A stretch of 64,000 bases of DNA from an uncultured Chloroflexia bacterium (GCA_963703155.1 OY969796.1:3509875-3573874), one strand, 5' to 3'. Shown: positions 1-54,897, counted from the stretch's first letter. Numbers and translations are program-made. Notes: generated from the sequence alone by a model not told the origin.

Positions 1-2852
1 GGATGATCGCCACCTCCACCACGAGGTCGTCGAGGTTCTGGGGGCGCGACTTGGGCAGCGTCTGCATCTGCGCCCGGCTCTCCACCTGGAAGACGCCCAC
101 GGTGTCGGCGGCCTGGAGCATCTCGAAGACCTCGGGGATCTCCTCGGGGATGCGGTCAAGGTCCACGCAGAGCGCGCAGTCGTGCTCGATGAGCTGGATC
201 GTCTCGTCGATGGCCGCGAGCATGCCCAGACCGAGCAAGTCGAGCTTGATCAGCTTCATCGTCTCGACATCGCGCTTGTCGTACTGCACGACCACGCGGT
301 CCTTCATGGTGGCGCGCTCGATCGGCGCGATGTCGATCAGCGGCGCCGCGGTCACGAGCATCCCGCCCGAGTGGATGCTGAGGTGGCGCGGGAAGCCGTC
401 GATGCGGGCGCACAGCTCGAGCCAGCGCTCCCAGTCCGAGAGGTGGGCGACCGAGCCGCGATGCTCCGGGCTCGCGCCGGCGGGCGGCACGGGCGGGTCG
501 AGGCGGGCGACGCTGCTGACGTGGTCGGTGCGGGCGCCGCGGGCGGCTCGTGCTTCGCCCTCGGCCTCCTCGCCCTCGCCATCGATCGGGCCATCACCGC
601 GGGGCGGGTCGAAGCGGCGGTCCTCCGCCAGCAAGATCCCGGTCTCCGGGTCGAGGCGTCGGGCGACGGCTTGGTCCAGCTCGCGCTTCGCCTCCCGGTA
701 CGGCGCCCATCGCTCGGTCCCCCGCGCGCGCGTCGTACCCGGTCCCGCGACCCGCCCGGAGCCAGGCGACGCTTGCTGGCGTGTCGCCAGGACCGCCCTT
801 GTCCCCGCCGGAGCCGCCGCTCCGAATGGCCGGCGCGGAGCCAGGCGCGCCGGCCCAGGTGCCGTTGCCTGCCAGGCCGTCGGCCTCCCGTCGCAGCGCC
901 GGTCGCGGTGTCGGCTCGGGCGATGCGGCAGCGGGCGCCGTCGCGACCTCGTCTGGCATCGACACCGACCCGCCCGGCGCCAGCAGACCGGTCCGGATCC
1001 GCCCACCGCGCGCGTGGTTCAGCTGCCCCATCGCGTCGGTGAGGCCGCGGGTCTCGGCGAGCGTGGCAACCGGACCGGGACCCAGCACGCCCGTGCGCCC
1101 GGGCTCGGAACTGGTGTCGGCGTCGGCTGACGCCCCGCCCTCGCCCGGCCGCGCGAAGAACTGCGCAAACCCGCCCTCGGTCTCGAGGTCGCGCCGGACC
1201 ATCACGCTGTCGTACGTCTCGAGCGCCTTCGCCACCCGGTCCACCAGCGGCCGCGGGAACCCCAGCGCGTACCCCACCTCGCGCACCGCCGACCGCGCCC
1301 GGTACGTGACCAGGTTGCAGACCATCCCCGTGTGCTCCGGCCCGTACTTGCGGTAGACGTACTGGATCACCTCCTCCCGGCGCTCGGAGCTGAAGTCGAT
1401 GTCGACGTCGGGGTAGGCCGTCCGCCCCTCGTTGATGAACCGCTCGAACAGCAGCTCGTGGCGGATCGGGTCAACCCGGGTGATCCCCAGCACGTACGCC
1501 ACGATCGAGTCCGCCGCCGACCCCCGGCCCTGCGCCGGGATCCGGCTGCGCTTCGCGAACTGCATCAGGTCCCAGCAGATCAGGAAGAACTCGGCGAGGC
1601 CCGTCTTCTCGATGACGTCGAGCTCGTGGGCCAGCTGGCGCATGACCTGGGGCGTGAACGGGTGGTAGCGGCGGCGCGCGCCCTCCCAGCACAGCCCAGA
1701 GAGGTGGCTGAACGGCGTCTCGCCCCTCGGCACCTCGAAGCCCGGGAAGCGGTACCGCTCGAAGGTCAGCGCCACGCGGCAGGCGCCGGCGATCTCGACC
1801 GAGTTCGCGATGCCCTCGCGCCAGCCCCGCGCCAGGACGGGGTCAGCGGCGGTGGTGGCCGGCTCGCCCGGCGGCAGGGCCAGCAGGTCGTCCGCGTCCT
1901 TGAGGTACGACTCGCCGTCTGGGCGGCGGAGCTCGCGCAGGTCGGCCAGCGTCCGGCCGTGGCGGACGGCGGTGAGGACGTCGTGGAGCTCGCGGCCGTC
2001 GGGTCGGGCGTAGTGGACGTCGTTGGTGACGAGGGTGGGCAGCCCCAGCTCGTCGGCCAGGCGCGCGGTCTCGGACGCGAGCCAGTCGTCATCGGGGAGC
2101 AGGTGGTGCGAGAGCTCGAGGACGAAGCCGGCCGCGGCCGCCGACGACGAGGGGCCCGAGGCCGATGAAGCCGAGCCCGATGAGCCGAACAGCAGTGCGT
2201 AGCGCTCGGCCGCCGCACGCGCCCCCTCGCGGTCGCCGGCCCGCAGGCGCCGCGCGATCTCCCCGTGCCGGCACCCGGACAGCGCCACCAGCCCCTCGGC
2301 GTTCGCCGCCAGCAGCTCGTGCGTGAACTTGGGGACCGCCTTGGTCCCGGCCAGGTTCGCCCGCGACACCATCCGGCACAGGCTCCGCCAGCCGGCCTCG
2401 TTCCGGGCCAGCAGCACCAGGTGAGGGCCGCGCTCCGCCTCGCCGATCCCCCGGTGGTCCTCTTTGCGCACCTCGCGGTGCCCGGGCAGCCGGGCACGCT
2501 CCGGCCGCGGCCGGACCGGACGTCCCTCGACCGGGAGCGGAAGCTCCGGCTGCGGCATCGGCCGGCGTTTTCCTGGGCGCCATGCCTGCCGCCCAGGCAC
2601 GGCGATCCCGCCCGGGTCCGGCACGCACGCGTCCAGCAGCTCGATCTCGATGCCGACGACCGGGTGGATCCCCGCGGCCTCCGCGGCGCTCGTGAAGCGG
2701 ACCGCGCCGTACAGCCCGTTGTGGTCGGTGACCGCCAGCCCGGCCAGACCCAGCTCGGCAGCCCGCTCGGCGATGTCGTCGGGAGCCGACGCCCCGTCCA
2801 GGAACGAGAAGTGGGTGTGGCAGTGCAGCTCGGCGAAGGGGATGGTGGCCAC
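1..2852 (-). CDS. dnaE2: Error-prone DNA polymerase III alpha subunit DnaE2/ImuC, 5' two-thirds; the gene continues past the window start. The reading frame changes between about nt 600 and 1260 (frameshift or low-complexity insertion)
   Basis: ORF 594..2852 starts MATIPFAELHCHTHFSFLDGAS...LAVTDHNGLYGAVRF (PHP domain, DnaE2-type N-terminus). The minus-strand frame ending at nt 2 encodes ...DGFPRHLSIHSGGMLV...GVFQVESRAQMQTLPKSRPQNLDDLVVEVAII (polymerase catalytic region), but in a different frame from 594..2852. A LexA box lies 30 nt upstream of the ATG at 2852. Confidence 0.85.
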
Positions 2853-2882: not shown

Positions 2883-2898
2883 TAGAACAGATGTTCTG
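2883..2898. promoter_or_regulatory. LexA (SOS, Cheo-type) box TAGAACAGATGTTCTG in the divergent dnaE2 / gyrI-like intergenic region
   Basis: GAAC-N4-GTTC palindrome. An identical half-site architecture recurs at 9226-9241 upstream of imuA'-imuB. Confidence 0.65.
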
Positions 2899-2999: not shown

Positions 3000-3482
3000 A
3001 TGGAGCACGAGATCCATGTCACGGACCGGCCCGCGCTGCGAGTCGTCTCGAAGCGCGTGTCAGTCGCAATCGAGCTCATCGGGCCGACGCTGGGCCAGGC
3101 GTTCGGCGAGGTGTATGCGCTCATCGGCGCCGCCGAGGCAGAGGCGGCCGGTCCGCCGTTCGTCATCTACCACGCAATGCCGGCGCCGGGTCAGCCGATG
3201 AACATCGAGATCTGCGCGCCGGTCAGCGGCTCGCTTGAGCCGCACGACCCGTGGCGCCTCGTGGACCTGCCGGCGGGCACGTTCGCGACCCTGAAGCACG
3301 TCGGTCCGTACGACACCGTCGAGGCGACCTACAGCGCTCTGACCGCCTGGATCCCGGACCACGGGCTCGCCATCGCGGGGCCGCCGCGCGAGGTGTACCT
3401 GAGCGAGCCGTCCACGCCGCCCGAGCTCATCGAGACCATCGTCGAGTTCCCGGTGATGAGGCTGCCGGTCGCGGTGGGCTGA
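3000..3482 (+). CDS. GyrI-like (SbmC / AraC effector-binding fold) small-molecule-binding protein
   Basis: 160 aa, ...PPFVIYHAMPAPGQPMNIEICAPVSG... is typical of the GyrI-like domain. Divergent from dnaE2 across the LexA box. Confidence 0.7.
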   Translation: MEHEIHVTDRPALRVVSKRVSVAIELIGPTLGQAFGEVYALIGAAEAEAAGPPFVIYHAMPAPGQPMNIEICAPVSGSLEPHDPWRLVDLPAGTFATLKHVGPYDTVEATYSALTAWIPDHGLAIAGPPREVYLSEPSTPPELIETIVEFPVMRLPVAVG

Positions 3483-3506: not shown

Positions 3507-4223
3507 TCAGGTCTGGCGGACCTTGATCCCGAGCTGGGCCGCCAGGAGGGGTGCGAGGCCGATCAGCTGCTCAGGCGTCACCGTGGCGCCGCGCAGGCCC
3601 TCAACGCCGCGGACCGAGCCGATCGAGGCACCGGTGAGGTCCGTGCGGAGAAGCCGCGCCCCGGTCACGTCGAGCAGCTCGATCTCGCAGCCCTCGAAGG
3701 AGAGGTCGCGGGCCTCGACGGTGCCCAGGTCCAGCTCGCCCATCACGCATCCGTCGAACGCGACGCCGGTGAGCTTGGCGCCGGAGAGGTCCACGAGGTC
3801 GAGACGTCCGCCGCGGACACGCACCGACGTCCACGAGCCGCCGGTCGAGAGCAGCGCTCCCACGCGCCGGACGGTGACCAGCGTGTCGCGCCAGACCGAG
3901 TCGGCGGCGTCGAGGCTGGCGGCGCCCAGCTCGTCGAGTCGGCACTCGGAGATCCGCGCCCGCCGCATCGACACTCCGTCCAGCGCGCACCGCTCGATGT
4001 GGCAGCCGAGGAACGCGGCGTCGTCGGCGGCCTGACCCGCGAAGTCGAGGCCGGCGAAGTGCACTGCGTCGTAGTCGCCGTTCGCCTCCAGGCCCAGCCC
4101 CGTGAAGGTGGTGATCGTGTCGGGCAGGGCCACGTCGCGCGGCGGCTCCTGCCTGGCCGTCGGCTTCGCCCTCGACGTGGTGGTCAGCGATCCGCCGCGC
4201 TTCGCGCCCTCCGCCGGACCCAC
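3507..4223 (-). CDS. Pentapeptide-repeat protein (MfpA/Qnr-like DNA-mimic family)
   Basis: A(D/N)LxG-type pentapeptide repeats run through the ORF (…LDFAGQAADDAAFLGCHIERCALDGVSMRRARISECRLDELG…). GTG start 1 nt after the stop of the upstream HAD gene. Confidence 0.8.
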   Translation of the reverse strand: MGPAEGAKRGGSLTTTSRAKPTARQEPPRDVALPDTITTFTGLGLEANGDYDAVHFAGLDFAGQAADDAAFLGCHIERCALDGVSMRRARISECRLDELGAASLDAADSVWRDTLVTVRRVGALLSTGGSWTSVRVRGGRLDLVDLSGAKLTGVAFDGCVMGELDLGTVEARDLSFEGCEIELLDVTGARLLRTDLTGASIGSVRGVEGLRGATVTPEQLIGLAPLLAAQLGIKVRQT

Positions 4224-4224
4224 C

Positions 4225-4887
4225 TCAGGCCGCCTCGACCACGACGTCCTCGAGCGAATCGATGAGCAGATCCGCCCCCGCGCTGATCAGTGCGGGCCCC
4301 ACGCCTGGCCGGTCGGGCACGCCCACGACGAACAGGCCGGCCGCCCGCGCCGCCCGGACGCCCACGGGCGAGTCCTCGAACGCGATGGCGTGCTCGGGGT
4401 CAGTCGAGAGCAGCCGGCAGCCCTCGAGGAACACGGCCGGGTCGGGCTTCCCGGCCCCGAGGTCTGATCCGGACGCCACGATCTCGAACGCGTCGAGGAG
4501 CCCCACGCCGCGGAGCGCGAGCTCAACCAGCGGCGTTGTGGTGGATGTGGCGACGCCCAGCCGCACGCGCCCCACCAGCGACCGGACCAGCTCCGCCGCC
4601 CCGCGGTGGAGCGGCGCGCCGGCGAGGTACTTGGCGCGCATCAGGTCGAGCAGCTCCGCCTCGATCATTGCGGGGTCCATCCCGCCGAGCCGCTTCGAGT
4701 AGGCGCGGGCGGAGTCGGGGAGGGCACGGCCGTGGCTGGCCTCGCGGTCGGCTTCGGTCAGGTGGTCGCCATGGCGGGCGAGCAGCTCGGCTTCAGCCTC
4801 GATCCAGAGGGGCTCGGAATCGAGCAGGAGGCCGTCCATGTCGAACAGGACGGCGCGAAAGCGGCGGGGCAGGACGAGCGCGGTCAC
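4225..4887 (-). CDS. HAD-superfamily hydrolase, subfamily IA (beta-phosphoglucomutase-like)
   Basis: Motifs LFDMDGLLLDSE ... GKPDP ... FEDSPVG. Proposed GTG start at 4887 with a TACAAT -10-like hexamer 7 nt upstream (leaderless). The ORF remains open to 4995. Confidence 0.7.
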   Translation of the reverse strand: MTALVLPRRFRAVLFDMDGLLLDSEPLWIEAEAELLARHGDHLTEADREASHGRALPDSARAYSKRLGGMDPAMIEAELLDLMRAKYLAGAPLHRGAAELVRSLVGRVRLGVATSTTTPLVELALRGVGLLDAFEIVASGSDLGAGKPDPAVFLEGCRLLSTDPEHAIAFEDSPVGVRAARAAGLFVVGVPDRPGVGPALISAGADLLIDSLEDVVVEAA

Positions 4888-5000
4888 GTCCGGGGATTGT
4901 AGCGGTGGTCTCTTGGGCCTCCGACAGGCCCGAGCCAACGTGCTTGGGCCAACAGAGGCGCGAGCGCCACCAACCGCGCGCCTTGCGCGTCTCACGCGGC

Positions 5001-5132: not shown

Positions 5133-5301
5133 GCCGGCGACCATCTCCACGATGACTTCCTCGCGGCGGCGGCCGCAGGCGATGGCGGCCGCCGACCTGG
5201 CCCGACCGGCCGTGGGCCGGCGGACCGTGACTCGGACCCCCGTTGACCCGTCAGCGGGGGTCCCTCCTTGCACGGCGCGGTGCGAGGGCTACGATGCGGT
5301 C

Positions 5302-5877
5302 ATGCGATCCGTCTTGCGCCCCGTCGTGCGCCCCGTCGTGCGCCCCGCAATGGCGCTCGCCCTCGCCCTTGCCCTCGGGGCGTGCTCCGGGTCGCCGGCC
5401 GCTTCGCCGGCTGCCGGGGCAGCCCAAACGCCCGCCGCCTCGACCGGCGCTCGCACGACGGAGTCCGGTGCGGACTCGCCCGCGCCGGACGCGAGCGCTA
5501 CGGCCCCGCCTGCGCCCGTCACGACACCGGTCAGCACCACGCAGACGCCGTGGGGCCGGATCGTCGACGCCGTGCCGGCCGCCTTCCCGGTCTTCCCGGG
5601 CGCCACGGTGGCCGACGCGCCGCCGGACGGCGCGGTCAGCGGGGCGTGGGTGTCGAAGGCGTCCGTGTCCGAGGTCGCGACCTGGTATCACGACGCGCTC
5701 CTGGCGGCGAAGTTCGCCAAGGTGGATGTCGGCAGTGCGCTCGAGGACGGATCGCGAGTGATTGACGTCCAGGGCGACCTTCCCGAGTGCAAGGCGCAGG
5801 TGACGGTCAAGCCGCAGAAGGATTTCACGATGATCAGCGTTCTGGTCGGCGCCGGGTGCGCTGGCGCGAGCGGTTGA
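5302..5877 (+). CDS. Lipoprotein (signal peptide + lipobox LALGAC), Ala/Pro/Thr-rich linker
   Basis: MRSVLRPVVRPVVRPAMALALALALGACSG.... The N-terminal 12-bp tandem repeat (5316-5346) encodes VRPVVRPVVRP. Confidence 0.7.
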   Translation: MRSVLRPVVRPVVRPAMALALALALGACSGSPAASPAAGAAQTPAASTGARTTESGADSPAPDASATAPPAPVTTPVSTTQTPWGRIVDAVPAAFPVFPGATVADAPPDGAVSGAWVSKASVSEVATWYHDALLAAKFAKVDVGSALEDGSRVIDVQGDLPECKAQVTVKPQKDFTMISVLVGAGCAGASG

Positions 5878-6497: not shown

Positions 6498-6746
6498 TCA
6501 GTCGTACAGGCGCTCCAGGTGCCACGTCCCGGCGAGGCGGTCCAGGTACACCAGCGCGAGCCAGCTGCGGCCGACCACCTTGAAGTAGTCGCGGGCGATG
6601 GGCTCGCGCCACCACGCCTCCTCCACGCGCCAGCGGTTGCAGACCTCCACCGGCTCACGGCGCCCGTTCCAGGTGATCGCGACGAGATGGCCGGCGTCAT
6701 CGAGCTCGGCGTCCACGGCCGGGTGCTCGCGCAGGAGGCGGGTCAT
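6498..6746 (-). CDS. Small Trp-rich hypothetical protein (82 aa) translationally coupled to imuB
   Basis: MTRLLREHPAVDAELDDAGHLVAITWNGRREPVEVCNRWRVEEAWWREPIARDYFKVVGRSWLALVYLDRLAGTWHLERLYD. Its ATG overlaps the imuB stop in an ATGA arrangement. Confidence 0.55.
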   Translation of the reverse strand: MTRLLREHPAVDAELDDAGHLVAITWNGRREPVEVCNRWRVEEAWWREPIARDYFKVVGRSWLALVYLDRLAGTWHLERLYD

Positions 6747-8113
6747 CGGGCGAACCGTGCCTTGCGGGTATCGGCCGGCGCCATCGGAACGGCAGGGCGC
6801 GCGTCGGCCGGCGCCACTAGGCCAGCCCGAGCCTCGCCGGTCACCTCGACCCCCGCCACCGGCCGCCACGCCCAGCGCTCCTCGGCAAGCAGCGCCTCGG
6901 GATCGCCCACCTCCACGCGTCGCACCCGATCAGCCCCGAACGCGATCGCGAGCCTGGCCAGCTGCCACTCCAGCCGCGCTCCCCGAGCGGCCTGCGGCGT
7001 GAACAGCGGCAGTTGCTGGCCGCGGGCCGCATCGACCAGCCCGAGCTCGAGCTCGAGGCGCGCCACGGCAGCCGGCGGCGGTGACCCCTCGAGACGGGCG
7101 AACAGCAGCCGCTCGATCGCCTCGGCATCCGCGGTGGGCTCGGGAAAGCGCTGCTCGAAGCGGAGCTCGGACGGCGTCCCGCGCCGCGCGAACGCCAGAT
7201 CGTGGCTGATCGCAAGGCGCGCCAGCCCCGCCGCCTGGCCCCGCGCCGCCAGCTGGTCCGCGAGCGTGGCCGACAAGCGCCGGAGGACGAACCGCAGCGC
7301 GTCGAGCCCCTCGGCGGGCGGGTCCAGCGGCAGCGCCAGGGCCATCCGCTCGGCCGCATGGCGCGGGCGGAACCGCTCCGTCTCCTCGCCGCGCGCTCGG
7401 GCGTGGAGCCGCGCCCCCTCGTCGCCGAATCGTGCGACCAGCGCCGATCGCGGCAGCTCGGCCACCGAACCGATGGTCCGCAGCCCGAACCGCGCTAGGC
7501 GCGCCCGGATGTCCGGGTCCTTGGTCAGCAGCTTCGCCGGATAGGGGGCGAGGAACTGCTCGTCGTCGCCCGGCGGGACCAGCATCGGCGGGCCGCCCGG
7601 CTCCGCATACGCGGCGGCGACCCCGGCCGCGAACCCCGTCCCGGCGATCCCCGCATAGGACGGGCCGGGCAGCACCGGCGCCAGCGCCTCGACCATGCGC
7701 GCCACCAGCCGCTCCTCGACGCCCCACAGGCGCACCAGCCCATCGGCGTGGACGATCAGCCGGCCGAACGCCGGGTCCGACACGTCACTCGGCCCGGCGA
7801 TCCCGGGGCTGAACGTGGCGAGCCGCTCACAGGCGGCCTCGACCGCAGCCCGATCCTCGTCAGGCGCCGGGTCCAGGAAGACCGCCTCGGGCGCCATGCG
7901 GTGCGCCGACCCCAACGGGATCCCCCGCCGGACGCCGAGCGCCCGGGCGAGCGGATCTGCGTCGAGGACTGTCCCGTCCGTCCAGGGCTGCCCGCCAAGG
8001 ACGATCGGGCCGGTTGGCCACGAGCCGGAGATGGCGCCGCCCGCCTCGTGGCGAGCCCGGGCGAGGCGGAGTGGCAGGTGCGGCCAGAACAGGTAGAGCA
8101 GACGCATGGGCAT
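6743..8113 (-). CDS. imuB: ImuB, catalytically inactive Y-family polymerase-like mutasome subunit
   Basis: Starts MPMRLLYLFWPHLPLRLA.... The layout is Y-family/UmuC-like but lacks the catalytic acidic triad. Immediately downstream of imuA'. Confidence 0.8.
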   Translation of the reverse strand: MPMRLLYLFWPHLPLRLARARHEAGGAISGSWPTGPIVLGGQPWTDGTVLDADPLARALGVRRGIPLGSAHRMAPEAVFLDPAPDEDRAAVEAACERLATFSPGIAGPSDVSDPAFGRLIVHADGLVRLWGVEERLVARMVEALAPVLPGPSYAGIAGTGFAAGVAAAYAEPGGPPMLVPPGDDEQFLAPYPAKLLTKDPDIRARLARFGLRTIGSVAELPRSALVARFGDEGARLHARARGEETERFRPRHAAERMALALPLDPPAEGLDALRFVLRRLSATLADQLAARGQAAGLARLAISHDLAFARRGTPSELRFEQRFPEPTADAEAIERLLFARLEGSPPPAAVARLELELGLVDAARGQQLPLFTPQAARGARLEWQLARLAIAFGADRVRRVEVGDPEALLAEERWAWRPVAGVEVTGEARAGLVAPADARPAVPMAPADTRKARFAR

Positions 8114-8996
8114 CGATCGATGGGTGGGGGCCTTTCCGATCAGTAAGGGCGACGGGGCCGGGCGGGGCGGGCGGCTGGTGGGCGGGTGTCGCCGCAGACC
8201 CGGGCGGGGCCGACAGGGCGACGGGGCCGGGCGGGGAGGCAGGGCCCTCGAGCCCGGCGAGCAGCTCTGGGCGCCCGAGGCAGCCGTCCCGCGGGCCGCC
8301 CTCGGCGTAGAGGATGGCCAGCTCGGCGTCACGACCGGGCGGGCCATACCGGTTGCGCGCGACGGTGGCCCGGCACCGCTGCCCGACCACGTCCCGGCCC
8401 AGCCGGATCCAGCCTGAGCGGCGCAACTCGAGCCGCAGCCCGCTCGCCTCGTCCACCGCGGCCGCCAGCCCGCGACCCAACCCGTCGGGCGCCAGCACCA
8501 CGAGCAGCGTCCCCGCCCGCCGCGCCAGCGCCGCCAGCCGACCGAGCCGATCCCCCACCCGCGCCCCGGCGACCGCGGGGTCCCGGCCCTCGGGCAGGTC
8601 CAGCACCAGGAGGTCCACCGTGCGGGCGGCGAGCAGCGAGCCCGCCAGCCCCAGCGCCTCCTCGAGGTCCTGCGGTACGAGCACCACCAGCCACTCCGGG
8701 CGGACGCCGCGCGCCACCGCCTCCACGGGGTCGAACGCACGGGCGAGGTCAAGCCAGGCCACGATGGACCCGGCGGCCTGGGCCTCCGCCGCCACCCGCA
8801 GGGCGAGCGTGGTGCGTCCTGAGCTGGCACCTCCGCGGAGCGCCACGGTGGCCGAGCGCGGCAGCCCGCCCGTTCCCAGCACGGCGTCCAGCGCGGCGAA
8901 GCCCGTGGGGACCACCCGGCCGTCCTCGTGCGCGGCCACGCCCGGGCGTCCGGGCGCGAACGGGTTGCTGGGCGCTGGCGCCGGGGCGACAGGCAC
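7860..8996 (-). CDS. imuA: ImuA' (RecA/SulA-fold SOS mutasome subunit). The C-terminal ~110 codons are Pro/Ala-rich low complexity and overlap imuB
   Basis: ...VVPTGFAALDAVLGTGGLPRSATVALRGGASSGRTTLALRVAAEAQAAGSIVAWLDLARAFDP... resembles ImuA/SulA-like RecA-fold proteins. The first in-frame stop is at 7860. Confidence 0.7.
   Translation of the reverse strand: MPVAPAPAPSNPFAPGRPGVAAHEDGRVVPTGFAALDAVLGTGGLPRSATVALRGGASSGRTTLALRVAAEAQAAGSIVAWLDLARAFDPVEAVARGVRPEWLVVLVPQDLEEALGLAGSLLAARTVDLLVLDLPEGRDPAVAGARVGDRLGRLAALARRAGTLLVVLAPDGLGRGLAAAVDEASGLRLELRRSGWIRLGRDVVGQRCRATVARNRYGPPGRDAELAILYAEGGPRDGCLGRPELLAGLEGPASPPGPVALSAPPGSAATPAHQPPAPPGPVALTDRKGPHPSIDAHASALPVLAAPATPPRPGSPRGGRRHLRLVANRPDRPWRAALDGRDSPRRRSARPGARRPAGDPVGVGAPHGARGGLPGPGA
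8146..8235. repeat. 22-bp direct repeat AGGGCGACGGGGCCGGGCGGGG (8146-8167 and 8214-8235) inside the imuA' tail / imuB start region; encodes PPGPVAL twice
   Basis: Exact repeat seen in the sequence. Confidence 0.6.
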
Positions 8997-9225
8997 GAAG
9001 GCGGGAGAGGCGGAGGCGCGCGGGAGCCCAGCGTGACGGCCCCGCCCTCGGCTGCCATGGCTTCGGCCAGCTCGTCATCGATCGGCAGGGGCGCCACTGC
9101 GAGCGCGCCATCGACCACCGGCGCGGTGTCTCCCCAGCGGCGTGGAGCGGCCGCGCCCCAGCGTGCCTGGAGGGTGGCGAGGGCCTGGGAGACATCGGAT
9201 GCTCGGGTCATCGGACGTCTAATCA

Positions 9226-9241
9226 TAGAACGCATGTTCTA
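9226..9241. promoter_or_regulatory. LexA (SOS) box TAGAACGCATGTTCTA upstream of imuA'-imuB
   Basis: Same half-sites as the dnaE2 box (TAGAAC-N4-GTTCT). Overlaps the ATG of an alternative upstream ORF that starts at 9235. Confidence 0.65.
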
Positions 9242-15645: not shown

Positions 15646-16891
15646 GTGACGGGCCTGCGAATCGCCCTCCTCGCGCCCCCGTCCGAACCGGTCCCGCCGC
15701 CCGGCTATGGCGGCACGGAGCGGATCATCGCGGAGCTCGCCGAGGGGCTGCTCCGGCGCGGCCACCATGTCACCACGTTCTGCTCCGGCGACTCGACCGT
15801 CGGGGGCGCACGCGTCGTCACGGTGCCGGAGGCGCTCCGGCCGAGCGGCAAGGTCGACAGCGAGCCATGGAAGATCGCCACGGCCACCATGGCGATCGAG
15901 CGCTCCCTGCGAGGCGAGTTCGACGTCATCCATGGGCACCTGGACTTGATGACGCTGCTGGTCGCCCCCGCCTGCCCGGTGCCCGTGATCGCCACGTTCC
16001 ACGGCCGGATCGACCACAAGGCGATCGGGATCGCGATGCACGGCTCAGCGGCCCACCTCGTCGCGATCAGCGCGCACCAGGCGGCGACCCGCCCCGAGGC
16101 CGACTGGGCCGCGATCATCCACAACGGGCTGACCCTCGACGGCGCCCCGTTCGAGCGCCGCCGCGACGACTCGCTGGTGTTCGCCGGACGGGTGGCGCCC
16201 GAGAAGGGGATCCTCGACGCCATCGAGGTCGCGAAGCTGTCCGGCCGCCCCCTTCGGATCATCGCCAAGGTGGGCACCCACGCGAGCGAGGCCGCCTACT
16301 ACCACGACGTGTTCGAGCCCGCCCTCGCGGCGGCCGGCGACAGCGTGGAGTTCTTGGGCGAGCTGACGAGTGCGGAGCGCGACCAGGTGGTCGCCTCGAG
16401 CTACGCGACGATCATGCCCAGCGCCTGGCCCGAGCCGTTCGGCCTGGTCGCCATCGAGTCGCTGGCGTGCGGCACGCCGGTCCTCACCCGCCGGGTGGGC
16501 GGCCTGCCGGAGATCGTCCGGCGAGGGCGTGGACGGCTTCTTCGGCGACGACGTGGTGCACCTCGCGAGCCTCGTGGAGCGCATCGGCGAGCTGGACCGC
16601 GAGGCGATCCGGGAGTCCGCGATCGACCGCTTCAGCGCCAACCGGATGGTCGAGGCCTACGAGTCGCTGATGCTCCGCCTGGTCACCGGAGAGGCCTCGG
16701 GCGATCCTCGCGGCGGCCGCCCCCAGCTGAGCGTGGCGGCATCGCGAACGCTGGCCCGCGCCGGGCTGGCCTCTCCGCCGGTGCACGCGCCTTCAACACC
16801 CGAATCCCAGCTCGAGGAGTCTGTGGACGAGAATCCGCCCAAGGAGCTGGGCTGGGGACCCGGCGAGGGATCGGCCGCAAGGCTGCCGTAA
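15646..16891 (+). CDS. GT1/GT4-family glycosyltransferase with a +1 frameshift near 16510
   Basis: ...IALLAPPSEPVPPPGYGGTERIIAELAEGLLRRGHHVTTF...ESLACGTPVLTRRVGGLPEIV in one frame, then GEGVDGFFGDDVVHLASLVERIGELDREAIRESAIDRFSANRMVEAYESL in the frame of ORF 16370..16891. Confidence 0.7.
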
Positions 16892-32619: not shown

Positions 32620-33316
32620 GCACTCTCAGGGACAGCGTGTCCGTGACTCGGTGACCAGTCGCGCGCGCCTCGGCGGGCTACCATCGCGCCAAGAGCGATC
32701 CCGCGACCCGCGCTGCCGACCCCCTCCCCCGTCCCCGCAATGAGGGCGTGACCACCGCTGGATCCCGCTCGCCCATCCACCGCGGCGCCCTGCGCGTCGG
32801 TCTGGGGCTGATCGCCTGGCTGCTCGTGATCAGGGACTCCGCGCCAAGGTCACCCTGCGATACCGCGCGGACCTGTTGCCGTGCTTCGTGGTGCTGGCGA
32901 TGGCCGGGCGGTACCGAGCGGCTGCACACGGGCTAGCTCGTGATCTCGCTCTCGCTGCTGGCATGACACCGCATCATGCCGGGTTTCGGCCCCGCGGCGG
33001 CGGACGCGAAGGGGCCCCACCGCGATGGTGTCGCCCGCCTGATGGTGCGGCTCCGAGACCGCCTCCGGGTGAGCGCCTCCGTCCGCGCGGCGAGGCCCCA
33101 AGAACGCCGGACGGCCAGAGGTGAGCCGCCGGCAGGTCGACGACCCGGAACGCCCGGGCATCGCCGAGTGCTGGCTCCGGCGGCGCTGCCCGCCCGAGCC
33201 CGAAGTGGATCGCGGAACTGACGTTCATCGTCCGATCCCGGCCGGGCGCCAGCTGCAGCACCCTGATGATCGGGATCAGGCGGATCCGTCGCTGAGTCTC
33301 ACGCACTCCGCGGGCA

Positions 33317-51444: not shown

Positions 51445-52134
51445 GTGGAGCCCTCCAGCGCGCCGTGGCGCGCCATCGACAGCATCGAGCCGTCATCTCC
51501 GCCCGACGAAGAGCGTCGCGGTCGGCCCTGGCTGGCCGTCGCGGCCGTTCTGGCCGCCGTCGCGGTCGCCGTCGGGGCGCTGCTGGTCGCCGCGAAGCCA
51601 GGGCCGAGCGGGGACGGCGGGGGGATCGCGATCACGGAGGCCGGGGTCGCGGACAAGGGGGGATCATCGTCCGCGACCCCGGCATCCTCGTCCCGCCTCC
51701 TCGTCGTGGAGGTGAGCGGCGCCGTGGCGCGGCCGGGCGTGTTCCGGCTGCCGGCGGGCTCGCGGGTGGCCGATGCGATCGACGCTGCCGGCGGCTACGG
51801 GCCGAGGGTGGACGTGCGCGCGGCCGACCGAGCGCTGAACCTGGCCGCGCCACTCGAGGACGGCCAGAAGGTCCACGTCCCCGATCGTGACGAGGCCGGT
51901 GAGCCGTCGGCCGGGGGTGGATCGTCGGGACCCAAGGCAACTGTCGGCGGACCCGTCGACCTGAACCGCGCCACCGAGGCCGAGCTCGACGCACTGCCGG
52001 GGGTGGGTCCAGCCACCGCCGCGAAGATCATCGCCGGTCGGCCCTACGCCTCGCTCGATGACCTCGCGAGTCGCAAGGTGGTCGGGGCGGCGACCCTCTG
52101 CGAAGATCCGCGCGCTCGTCACGGTGGGAGGCTG
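51445..52134 (+). CDS. comEA: ComEA-like DNA receptor (TM anchor, SLBB and helix-hairpin-helix). No stop codon before the comEC ATG (in-frame read-through)
   Basis: ...LLVVEVSGAVARPGVFRLPAGSRVADAIDAAGG...VDLNRATEAELDALPGVGPATAAKIIAGRPYASLDDL.... GTG start with a GGGGAG SD. Confidence 0.75.
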
Positions 52135-54897
52135 ATGCACGGCGCGGGGATCCCCCGGAGTGCCTGGCTCGCGGTCGGGGTGGCTGCCGGCGCGGTGGCC
52201 GCGTCGATCGGGGCCGGGCCTGCCCCCACGCTCGTCGCCGGGCTCCTCGGGCTGGCGCTCGGCGCCCTGCCGATCAGCGACCGACGCCGGATTGTCCCGC
52301 GCGCGGTCACGCCGGCGAGCGTCGGCGCGATGCTGGTGGCCCTCCGCCTGCTGATCGGTCCGCCCGGGAGCGCCGTGCCCGAGCTGGACGGCCTCGGCAG
52401 TCCCCCGTGGACCGCCGAGGTCGTCTCCGTCGGGTCGCCGAAGGACGGGAGCCAGCTGGTCCGCCTCGCGATCCGCACAGACGGCGCGCCGGTGGTGGTG
52501 GCGGCGACGCTGCCCGCGTTCCCGGCGGTTGCGGCCGGTGCCGTCGTTGCGGTGGACGGTCGGCTGGAGCCCCCGCCCGACGACGACCCGTATGGCGAAT
52601 ACCTCCGGCGGACCGGCGCGTCGGGCAGCCTCCGCGCGACGAGCGTGCGGGTCGTGCGCGCTCCGCCGTGGCCGTCCGTGCAAGCCCTGCGCGACGGTGC
52701 CGGCGACGCGCTTCAGCTGTCCCTTCCAGAACCCGAGGCTGGCCTTGCCGCCGGCATCCTGATCGGCCTCCGGGAGCGCGTCGATCGCGCCCTGGCGGCC
52801 GACTTCGCCACCGCGGGCGTCAGCCACGTCGTGGCGATCTCCGGCTGGAACATCGCCATCGTCGCCGCGCTCGTGGCCGCCATGCTCCGTGGCCGGTCGC
52901 GTCGCACGGCCGGCCTGGTGACAGGCGGCGTGATCGTGGGGTACGTCATCGCTGCCGGCGCTTCACCGTCAGTTGTCCGCGCTGGCGTGATGGCCGGCGT
53001 CGTGCTGCTCGCACGGGGGTCGGGCCGCGCCGTCAGGGCGCCGGCGGCGCTCTCGCTCGCGGCGGCGGGGCTGCTCCTCCTGGACCCGGGCCTGGTCGGT
53101 GACGCCGGGTTCCGTTTGTCCGTGCTCGCGACCGCAGGCCTGCTCGCCTGGGCGACGCCGCTGGGCGCGTGGCTCGGGGGGCTCTGGGGCGGCCGAGTCC
53201 CGGGCTGGCTCGCCGAGGGGCTCGGGATCACGCTCGCGGCCCAGGCCGCCACGCTCCCCGATGTGCTCGCGACGTTCGGCCGCCTGTCGGTCGTCGCGCC
53301 GGCGGTCAACCTGCTCGTCGTGCCCATCGTGCCCGCGGCGATGGCGGGCGGAGCCGTGGCGCTCGTCGGTGGATGGCTGGTCCAGCTTGGACTGCCGGGA
53401 CCGCTCGGCATCCTCGTCGGGCTGCCGGGCTGGCTGCTGCTTCGCGTCATCGTGGCCGTGGTTCGGTCCGCGGCCGGGCTGCCCTTCGCCGCGATTGCCC
53501 TCCCGCCGGACCTCACGATCCCCGCCGCGATCGCGGCGCTTGCGCTCGTCGCGGGCGTGCTCCTGGCGGTCCGCTGGCGCCGCCAAGCCCGCGCGCGAGG
53601 ACGCGCCGCGCGAACGCCAACGCGGCGACGGGCGGGCCCCGCGCCGGCTGCCCCGCGCCCGCACATCCGCCCGCCGACTCGCCTCGAGCGCCTCGTGCTG
53701 GCCGGCTCCGCTCTGGTCGTCGCGGTGACGCTCCTGGCCGCTGCCGACGTGGTGGGGCGAGCGGACCGGATCGTCATGCTCGATGTGGGCCAGGGCGACG
53801 CGATCCTCGTGGAGAGCCGCGACGGCGCGCGGATGCTCGTCGACGGCGGGCCGGACCCGGACCGCGTCCTCGCCGAGCTCGACGCCACGCTGCCGCCCTG
53901 GGATCGGCGCCTCGACATCATCGTGCTCACGCACCCCCACGAGGATCACGTCGCGGGGCTGGTGCGGGTGCTCGAGCGCTACCGGGTGGGGCGCGTGTTC
54001 GAGCCGGGGATGCACGGGTCAGGGCCCGGCTGGGCGGCGTGGGACAAGGCGCTCGGGCACGGCCCGCCGCGGGGGATCCTGGCCGCGGGGGCTCGGCTCA
54101 GCCTGGGCGACATCTCGCTCGAGGTCCTCTGGCCGCGGCCCGGAACGGTGCCGGTGGCGCTCGCATCCACGGGCACGGGCATCAACAACACCTCGATCGT
54201 CCTGCTGGGCACGGCGTCGGGCCGCCACTTCCTGCTCACGGGCGACGCGGAGCAGGGCGTGGACCCCGAACTCGTCGTCGCGGGGCTCCCCCGCCTTGAC
54301 GTCCTCAAGGTCGCCCACCACGGCAGCGCCACCGCCACGACCGCTGCCCTGCTCGAGGCCACACGCCCCGCCTACGCGCTCATCTCGGTCGGCGCCGACA
54401 ACGACTTCGGCCATCCCGCGCCGTCAACCCTCGCCAGGCTCCGCGCCGGGGGGGCGCGGGTCCTGCGCACCGACAACGACGGCCGCCTCGAGGCGGTGCT
54501 TCGACCCGACGGCGTCGAGGTCCACGCGGCAGGCGCCAAGCGCACCGCCGCAACCCCCGACACCGGATACGATCGGTCGCATGACCGTCCCGGCGCGCCG
54601 CGAGGCCGCCCGCCTGCTGTTCTCGCTCCATCCACCCGCATGGGCCCTGCGCCACGCCTGCGCCGTGGCCGACGTCGCAGCGTGGCTGGCCGCCCGGGCC
54701 GCCGAACGCGGCGTGCCGTTGGATCGCCATGCCGTGGAGGCGGCAGCCCTGCTGCACGACGTGGACAAGCTGCCTTTGTCGGGCGCGGACCGCCGACTCC
54801 GCCACGGCGAGGGGTCGGCGGCCTGGCTCGCGGCGCGCGGGCTCGACGAGCTGGCGCCACTGGTCCGCGACCACCCGGTCACGTGCCTCTCCGATGA
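52135..54897 (+). CDS. comEC: ComEC/Rec2 DNA internalisation channel with a C-terminal metallo-beta-lactamase domain. The 3' end is uncertain (no stop until 54897, overlapping the next gene by ~300 nt)
   Basis: Polytopic competence domain, then ...IVMLDVGQGDAILVE...IIVLTHPHEDHVAGL...LKVAHHGSATAT.... GGGAGG SD 5 nt before the ATG at 52135. Confidence 0.8.
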   Translation: MHGAGIPRSAWLAVGVAAGAVAASIGAGPAPTLVAGLLGLALGALPISDRRRIVPRAVTPASVGAMLVALRLLIGPPGSAVPELDGLGSPPWTAEVVSVGSPKDGSQLVRLAIRTDGAPVVVAATLPAFPAVAAGAVVAVDGRLEPPPDDDPYGEYLRRTGASGSLRATSVRVVRAPPWPSVQALRDGAGDALQLSLPEPEAGLAAGILIGLRERVDRALAADFATAGVSHVVAISGWNIAIVAALVAAMLRGRSRRTAGLVTGGVIVGYVIAAGASPSVVRAGVMAGVVLLARGSGRAVRAPAALSLAAAGLLLLDPGLVGDAGFRLSVLATAGLLAWATPLGAWLGGLWGGRVPGWLAEGLGITLAAQAATLPDVLATFGRLSVVAPAVNLLVVPIVPAAMAGGAVALVGGWLVQLGLPGPLGILVGLPGWLLLRVIVAVVRSAAGLPFAAIALPPDLTIPAAIAALALVAGVLLAVRWRRQARARGRAARTPTRRRAGPAPAAPRPHIRPPTRLERLVLAGSALVVAVTLLAAADVVGRADRIVMLDVGQGDAILVESRDGARMLVDGGPDPDRVLAELDATLPPWDRRLDIIVLTHPHEDHVAGLVRVLERYRVGRVFEPGMHGSGPGWAAWDKALGHGPPRGILAAGARLSLGDISLEVLWPRPGTVPVALASTGTGINNTSIVLLGTASGRHFLLTGDAEQGVDPELVVAGLPRLDVLKVAHHGSATATTAALLEATRPAYALISVGADNDFGHPAPSTLARLRAGGARVLRTDNDGRLEAVLRPDGVEVHAAGAKRTAATPDTGYDRSHDRPGAPRGRPPAVLAPSTRMGPAPRLRRGRRRSVAGRPGRRTRRAVGSPCRGGGSPAARRGQAAFVGRGPPTPPRRGVGGLARGARARRAGATGPRPPGHVPLR

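Follow-up and report, generated by a model that had tools for sequence, protein, structure and literature searches.

[quoted passage not shown] ImuB tethers the mutasome to the β-clamp and binds ImuA′ through its RecA-NT motif (PMC11791113), which is defined by its likeness to the N-terminal helix of RecA (PMC6511836). The mycobacterial ImuB-C stabilises the binding of ImuA′, although its loss did not abolish binding (PMC11791113), and in AlphaFold models the main interface of ImuB-C is with the PHP domain of DnaE2, the domain also lying on ImuA (PMC12926913).

ImuB-C also exists as a protein of its own. The standalone form was defined in 2013 (PMC3765255), operons of the Kyrpidia tusciae type, which encode an inactive Y-family polymerase (iPolY), ImuB-C and DnaE2, were described in 2019 (Timinskas & Venclovas, PMC6511836), and a survey published in NAR in 2026 refers to iPolY plus ImuB-C as "split ImuB", in the DnaE2X group (PMC12926913). 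The split systems were reported to be devoid of imuA, the housekeeping RecA being presumed to act in its place, and according to both surveys only DnaE2A associates with ImuA and a fused ImuB (PMC6511836, PMC12926913). These two surveys covered complete genomes only, and probably did not include the uncultured lineages considered below.

Here we describe a cassette found in a 64,000-nucleotide stretch of DNA from an uncultured Chloroflexia bacterium (GCA_963703155.1 OY969796.1:3509875-3573874), the whole of which is referred to as the window. A preliminary description of this DNA had drawn attention to an 82-aa tryptophan-rich ORF (ORF82) at the 3′ end of an imuB-like gene, and had proposed that it may be a fourth gene of the mutasome cassette. 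[quoted passage not shown] Along the minus strand, the order is: a LexA box, a RecA-like gene, the iPolY gene, ORF82, four unrelated genes, a second LexA box and a dnaE2-like gene. The features are the following.

9228..9239 (no strand assigned): LexA (SOS) box, GAACATGCGTTC, 17 nt before the ATG of the RecA-like gene at 9211
7860..9211 (−): putative RecA paralog (ImuA-like), matching Pfam RecA, and NCBIfam RecA and ImuA, both below cut-off
6743..8113 (−): iPolY, 456 aa, ImuY-like, an apparent ImuB without its C-terminal domain; Pfam IMS and IMS_C
7001..7015 (−): QLPLF, putative β-clamp-binding motif, iPolY residues 367-371, conserved in the tails
6902..6979 (−): RecA-NT-like motif, iPolY residues 379-404, ARLEWQLARLAIAFGADRVRRVEVGD, recognised by eye against residues 8-33 of E. 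coli RecA
6857..6877 (−): conserved RWxWRPV motif of the iPolY tail, beyond which the sequence is variable as far as the stop
6743..6746 (−): ATGA stop/start overlap, putative translational coupling site; RTGA in 71/79 relatives, and the same in D. ficus
6498..6746 (−): ORF82, 82 aa, very probably a standalone ImuB-C (DUF6504-type) protein, predicted all-β
5152..5877 (+): lipoprotein-like gene, no Pfam match, signal-peptide/lipobox-like N-terminus by eye
4225..4995: HAD hydrolase, between ORF82 and dnaE2
3507..4223: pentapeptide-repeat protein, between ORF82 and dnaE2
3000..3482: GyrI-like protein, between ORF82 and dnaE2
2885..2896 (no strand assigned): LexA (SOS) box, GAACAGATGTTC, 33 nt ahead of the dnaE2-like start (2852)
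1..2852 (−): 5′ part of a dnaE2-like C-family polymerase gene (PHP and Pol III α), running off the start of the window

ORF82 is a conserved gene

The 82 residues translated from 6746 to 6498 on the minus strand are exactly those quoted in the preliminary description, and six of them are tryptophans (7.3%). The high GC content noted at third codon positions is also found: GC3 is 0.84-1.00, as compared to 0.44-0.58 at second positions (within 6501-6725), the GC content across the window being 69-80%. This pattern is the coding signature that is expected in a genome of 73-75% GC. A longer version initiated at a GTG (6498..6869) was rejected, since relatives from several clades start with MTRLL or VTRLL at the ORF82 start.

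A word-indexed search of the database returned 716 relatives of ORF82 at E ≤ 1e-3. The best 120 of these 716 have 79-96% identity to ORF82 and are nearly all 82 aa long; none of these 120 has a Pfam assignment, and their names in the sources, where given, are "hypothetical protein". In an exhaustive profile search, 516 cluster representatives at 50% identity match the ORF82 profile, and 457 stretches from GTDB species representatives encode a relative. The locus census used below consists of the best 80 of these 457 stretches, obtained with the close-family alignment as the query, and is confined to the Limnocylindria-type clade: all 80 are Chloroflexota MAGs, and those labelled below phylum or class are mostly Candidatus Limnocylindria/Limnocylindrales. 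Scans of IMG/VR returned no viral relative of ORF82, nor of its distant relative P0195 (see below).

Conservation was one of the points on which the preliminary description had made its proposal depend, and it is strong. All 81 orthologues (the 80 loci and the window) have exactly 82 open codons, and the annotated frame has a dN/dS of 0.14 (Nei-Gojobori, 600 random pairs), versus 2.2 and 3.1 for the two control frames. The dN/dS value and the frame controls lead us to reject the reading of ORF82 as a spurious ORF: it is a real gene under strong purifying selection. It also encodes the best-conserved protein of the cassette, with a median identity to the window of 85% (iPolY, 77%; RecA-like protein, 67%; DnaE2-like protein, 69%).

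Identity of ORF82

Two proteins with IMS and IMS_C domains, P0246 and P0267, match the profile of the close relatives of ORF82 at their very C-terminus (residues 467-538 of 538 and 442-501 of 501, respectively). In both, a clamp-like motif comes first, then a RecA-NT-like helix, then the ORF82-type domain, and this order indicates the architecture of ImuB.

When 72 diverse members of the ORF82 family are scanned singly, 53 match Pfam PF20114 (DUF6504), with a best E value of 2e-9. The window's own ORF82 sequence has no match in Pfam or NCBIfam, PF20114 included, even at E ≤ 10, so that its membership rests on profile and transitive evidence. PF20114 spans residues 431-504 of a 507-aa "DUF6504 family protein" encoded on a Methylovirgula plasmid, whose gene sits between those of an "ImuA family protein" and an "error-prone DNA polymerase"; because of this position, we consider the Methylovirgula protein as a canonical ImuB. 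The same Pfam model also spans the 81-aa product of a gene of Deinococcus ficus pDFI3, which is listed as imuB-C (PMC8072749, Table 1). A tblastn search of plasmids with ORF82 gave a weak match (E 0.7) that leads to this D. ficus DUF6504 gene, the two proteins being 34% identical.

The two approaches envisaged in the preliminary description, profile comparison of the HHpred type and structure prediction, were both applied. Using hhalign, the 72-member alignment is placed on the C-terminus of the canonical Methylovirgula ImuB with a probability of 96% and an E value of 4.4e-9, columns 3-83 of the family being paired with ImuB residues 414-506. The AlphaFold2 model of ORF82 is confident (pLDDT 89.2, pTM 0.76) and has eight strands; ORF82 is a small, predominantly β domain with no close relative among solved folds, and no match to a DNA-binding fold was found. 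The hallmarks of ImuB-C are a conserved C-terminal tryptophan, at least two conserved basic residues, an all-β structure and no catalytic-type motif (Aravind 2013, PMC3765255). Among the 72 diverse family members, W75 is invariant and W39, W45, W46, R52, Y54, D69 and D82 are each conserved in at least 90% of the sequences; R40, R52 and R79 are invariant within the ORF82 clade.

The idea of a fourth mutasome-cassette gene thus survives in part. ORF82 is a genuine and linked gene of the cassette, but it is not a new component, as the family profile aligns to the C-terminus of canonical ImuB; since standalone ImuB-C has already been published, this "fourth gene" is of a known kind.

iPolY and the RecA paralog

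The ORF of iPolY is formally open from 9235, and the real product starts at 8113 (MPMRLLYLF...). The position of E104 of E. coli Pol IV is occupied by Pro in iPolY, S-L-D-E being aligned with S-D-P (phmmer), and the N-terminus, LLYLFWPHLPL, has no acidic residue at the positions of D8 and D10, a Phe being found at the former (hand alignment). As judged from these alignments, iPolY is devoid of the catalytic carboxylates of Y-family polymerases and is predicted to be inactive.

In the tail of iPolY, the column fractions of QLPLF are mostly at least 0.9 (76 tails compared); the counterpart in M. smegmatis ImuB is 352-QLPLW-356 (PMC11791113). The RWxWRPV motif, further downstream, is a candidate docking site for ORF82. 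The order of the motifs puts the gene boundary at a position that corresponds, in the mycobacterial protein, to the linker (388-421) that separates RecA-NT from ImuB-C (422-525), and iPolY appears to be ImuB-like in all but the missing last domain.

The protein encoded at the head of the operon scores 105 bits against the RecA model TIGR02012 (cut-off 325) and 34.8 bits against the ImuA model NF033429 (cut-off 150), and aligns with RecA residues about 34-270. It retains a RecA-type N-terminal helix, DVSQALATLQARWG, followed by a low-complexity linker and a degenerate ATPase core; the C-terminal domain of RecA is absent and both DNA-binding loops, L1 and L2, are shorter than in RecA. None of the tallied sequences of the clade retains the catalytic Glu96 (WLDLARA and variants), which is an A in the window. 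The Walker A motif is GxxSSG(K/R)T, with an Arg in the window (GGASSGRT), the Lys being kept in many relatives. Taken at face value, these sequence features make it most plausibly a degenerate RecA paralog that plays the role of ImuA.

The tail of the RecA-like ORF (7860-8113, −) overlaps the start of iPolY by 254 nt, in another frame. RecA-like/iPolY overlaps occur in nearly all relatives, mostly over 119-284 nt and usually over 254-260 nt, and GC3 indicates that the tail at 7860-8113 is not under coding selection in that frame. The annotated imuA and imuB genes of Methylovirgula overlap by 86 nt.

We also found, in another locus (L084, 8001-9116), the gene of a 371-aa protein (P0253) in which a RecA-like N-terminal part is naturally fused to a C-terminal ImuB-C. 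A LexA box lies 114 nt upstream of this gene and dnaN about 1.7 kb upstream, and there is no Y-family gene in the 17-kb locus around it. This fusion may be taken as Rosetta-stone-type support for a contact between the RecA paralog and ImuB-C.

Gene order in the relatives

The preliminary description raised the question of whether the homologues of ORF82 consistently lie downstream of an imuB-like gene, and they do: the iPolY gene is upstream of ORF82 in 72/72 loci in which 1.4 kb or more of sequence precedes it and, in the remaining 8, as far as their shorter sequence reaches. The RecA-like gene is found further upstream in 65 of 66 loci. A dnaE2-like gene is present on the same strand, at most 10 kb downstream of ORF82, in 51 of 53 loci, at a distance of 340-5161 nt (median 1537). 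The contiguous three-gene context that had been assumed is not what we observe in the window, where dnaE2 starts at 2852 (−), 3.6 kb downstream of ORF82 and behind four unrelated genes. The dnaE2-like ORFs are intact in the relatives and unusually long (1460-1667 aa), the protein carrying a low-complexity insertion of 300-500 aa in its Pol III α domain. In the relatives, this insertion has conserved islands, e.g. GTWEGAPGSAPAIR...ERWAPYREAKR.

One of the intervening genes, 5152-5877 (+), is kept between imuB-C and dnaE2 in most relatives. Its product has the sequence ...ALALGACSG..., in which LGAC was recognised by eye as a lipobox, and is probably an unrelated lipoprotein. We rejected it as a fifth component of the system: it looks like a secreted lipoprotein, is on the opposite strand and is missing from several loci.

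Two more distant cases deserve mention. A metagenomic locus (L089, 1307-10377), whose ImuB-C is 42% identical, has a compact operon, lexA<->recA-like-iPolY-DUF6504(84 aa)-dnaE2(1042 aa)-SMC_N protein-recA. Two LexA-type boxes are present in its divergent promoter, and among the examples of an architecture that combines a RecA paralog and a split ImuB, this operon is the neatest. The full-length recA of this locus has Walker A, Glu96, L1/L2 and RecA_C all intact, which shows that the paralog coexists with a true RecA. In L092 (62-1674) and L093, a distant ImuB-C relative of 82 aa, P0195, is encoded by a gene that shares 4 nt with the end of another gene, of 455 aa, whose product weakly matches a phage-portal model of Pfam.

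LexA boxes

The sequence GAAC-N4-GTTC is the Gram-positive-type LexA operator. It occurs 3 times in the 64-kb window, versus 0.48 expected (3 or more in 2 of 100 shuffles), and two of the three occurrences are at the two promoters of the cassette. A LexA box precedes the RecA-like gene in all 58 relatives with a recognisable RecA-like N-terminus, and one is found at most 150 nt upstream of dnaE2 in all 70 relatives with a recognisable dnaE2 start. The boxes of the relatives are typically TAGAAC-N4-GTTCTA, and of the 150 boxes present in 1.29 Mb, 128 belong to these two promoter classes. The presence of conserved boxes at both promoters supports LexA control at the sequence level, and for the unit that contains imuB and ORF82, which had been proposed to be under this control, the evidence is the box at 9228-9239, found in the same place in 58/58 relatives.

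With approximate E. coli probes, the window and the loci yielded neither lexA nor a second recA gene. The third perfect GAAC-N4-GTTC box, at 33215-33226, has no obvious SOS gene next to it; a YceI-like ORF (named by eye) starts about 270 nt downstream.

The junction and the frame breaks

The ATG of ORF82 overlaps the TGA of the upstream iPolY gene by 4 nt, ATGA, in the sequence ...CGCCCGATGACCCGC (in a wider reading, CGCCCGATGACC). The coupling to the 3′ end of an imuB-like gene that had been proposed on the basis of this overlap is consistent with its conservation: it is ATGA or GTGA in 71 of the 79 loci with a callable upstream long ORF (among the best 80 of 457). An SD-like GGAG, GAGG or AGGA is present at −18 to −4 in 50/80 loci, and no obvious SD-like motif precedes ORF82 in the window's own copy. 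The imuY/imuB-C pair of D. ficus has the same 4-nt overlap and is annotated as two genes.

Frame breaks are seen elsewhere in the cassette. In the window, the reading frame that encodes the conserved N-terminal helix of the RecA-like protein (frame of ATG 9211/9235) is not that of its core (ORF 7860..8996), whereas 53/57 relatives encode both without a change of frame, which points to a 1-nt indel in the window's low-complexity linker, at ~8996-9060 (−). The frame of the dnaE2-like gene changes at about 742-867 (−), inside the low-complexity insertion. An unrelated gene, which is a single ORF in another locus (L003), is in two frames in the window, with the break at ~16518-16523 (+). At 51445-54897 (+), an 1150-aa ORF has ComEA-type SLBB/HhH, ComEC (Competence) and metallo-β-lactamase domains in one frame.

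The junction and the frame breaks bear on two alternative interpretations. One is that the split of ImuB is only apparent, a full-length ImuB being made by −1 frameshifting or readthrough at the ATGA, or the two genes being the product of a frameshift in the assembly; compared with iPolY, ORF82 is indeed shifted to the −1 frame, and its start coincides with the iPolY stop, the window has apparent 1-nt indels elsewhere, and the fused homologues P0246 and P0267 exist. We consider this hardly credible, and rejected both a sequencing frameshift and a programmed-frameshift fusion, because the junction is conserved while its upstream context is variable: 71/79 independently assembled genomes have the RTGA with a start at ATG or GTG, always with all 82 codons, the sequence before the junction differs among loci and contains no conserved slippery heptamer, an SD-like motif is present in 50/80 loci, and in Deinococcus the pair with this overlap is annotated as two genes. 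The other is that the cassette is a decaying cluster of pseudogenes, in which ORF82 would be a relic with no current function. Most relatives lack the frame breaks of the RecA-like linker and of dnaE2, as decay would have it, but both breaks occur in low-complexity, GC-rich stretches, and ORF82, iPolY and the two LexA boxes are intact, so that we hold decay to be quite improbable. Since a break of this kind is also seen, by comparison to L003, in the unrelated gene at about 16520, the breaks in the cassette are likelier to be assembly or sequencing indels in GC-rich low-complexity tracts than signs of its decay.

Possible function of ORF82

If ORF82 is ImuB-C, its role is most likely that of a module, supplied in trans, that docks onto DnaE2 and contacts the ImuA-like protein; we propose this because of the published data on ImuB and ImuB-C, which concern the fused mycobacterial ImuB. 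A different role, which we find unlikely, is that of a damage sensor, a small DNA-binding β-barrel that would recognise damaged DNA or photoproducts and recruit the polymerase, as hypothesised for ImuB-C by Aravind et al. in 2013 (PMC3765255). The family also occurs without DnaE2, beside Pol IV, Ku/ligase and SplB (PMC3765255), the ImuB-C relative of L092 is next to a phage-portal-like gene, and the conserved aromatic and basic residues (W39, W45, W46, R52, Y54, W75) are compatible with contacts to nucleic acids. However, the search for a DNA-binding fold gave no match, in the published AlphaFold complexes ImuB-C sits on ImuA and on the PHP domain of DnaE2 (PMC12926913), and the fusion of a RecA-like protein to ImuB-C fits a protein–protein role. 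The two roles, sensor and adaptor, are not mutually exclusive.

With ORF82 as a docking module, the following sequence of events may be envisaged. DNA damage would lead to the cleavage of LexA and to the induction of the recA-like/iPolY/ORF82 operon and of the separate dnaE2 gene. Termination–reinitiation at the ATGA would yield about one ImuB-C per iPolY. The latter would supply the dead Y-family polymerase body, the QLPLF β-clamp motif and RecA-NT. A mutasome tethered to the clamp would then form from the four proteins, ORF82 bridging DnaE2 to the pair formed by iPolY and the RecA paralog, and DnaE2 within this assembly would perform error-prone lesion bypass.

Comparison with known mutasomes

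The cassette opens no new class of system. Its interest is first that in hundreds of Chloroflexota genomes a "hypothetical protein" can now be named, very probably, as ImuB-C, and its neighbours as a split-ImuB SOS mutasome. In addition, a naturally free and very highly conserved ImuB-C of 82 aa lends itself well to structural and binding studies, all the more so as its own RecA-derived partner is encoded with it and a natural fusion of a RecA-like protein to ImuB-C is also known.

The standalone ImuB-C of Deinococcus resembles ORF82 in being an all-β protein of about 80 aa, whose gene overlaps by 4 nt the preceding gene, that of an inactive Y-family polymerase, is linked to dnaE2 and is under LexA control (PMC8072749). 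The Deinococcus cassette has lexA and no RecA paralog, and dnaE2 follows immediately, whereas here a RecA paralog heads the operon, lexA was detected neither in the window nor in the loci, and dnaE2, at a distance of 0.3-5 kb, forms a unit of its own with a LexA box.

As far as gene content goes, the cassette can be likened to the DnaE2X-type module, with which it shares an inactive PolY with RecA-NT, a separate ImuB-C and a DnaE2-family polymerase; it differs by the dedicated RecA paralog that is present in the operon here (65/66 loci) and in L089. In a limited search of the literature that mentions ImuB-C or DUF6504, we found no description of a RecA paralog together with a split ImuB and DnaE2, and this composition is probably a modest, undescribed variant.

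Compared to the canonical ImuA(ImuA′)-ImuB-DnaE2 system of Mycobacterium, Caulobacter and Pseudomonas, the domain inventory (a RecA-derived protein, a dead PolY, a clamp motif, RecA-NT, a linker, ImuB-C and DnaE2), its order and the SOS regulation are the same: with ORF82 as ImuB-C, the domain content of the cassette is the canonical one, with ImuB cut at the linker after RecA-NT. Here, however, ImuB consists of two polypeptides, a stop codon beyond RecA-NT and the linker and a separate start of ImuB-C being conserved in 71/79 genomes. Further differences are that the RecA-derived protein is nearer to RecA (105 bits) than to ImuA (35 bits), both scores being below cut-off, that it keeps its own N-terminal RecA-type helix and, often, the Walker A lysine, and that DnaE2 has the 300-500 aa low-complexity insertion.

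The cassette also bears on the published scenario in which ImuB arose from the fusion of a PolY and a free ImuB-C, and ImuA from a duplicate of RecA. We tentatively suggest, as a reading that is quite possible rather than probable, that the Limnocylindria-type cassette, which combines a degenerate RecA paralog, a dead PolY, a free ImuB-C and an insertion-bearing DnaE2, each unit with its own LexA box, represents a fourth and so far undescribed way of building the Imu mutasome, and that in evolution it stands between the iPolY/ImuB-C/RecA systems and the canonical fused ImuA-ImuB-DnaE2 systems. If this is so, a private copy of RecA was recruited before, or independently of, the fusion of PolY and ImuB-C.
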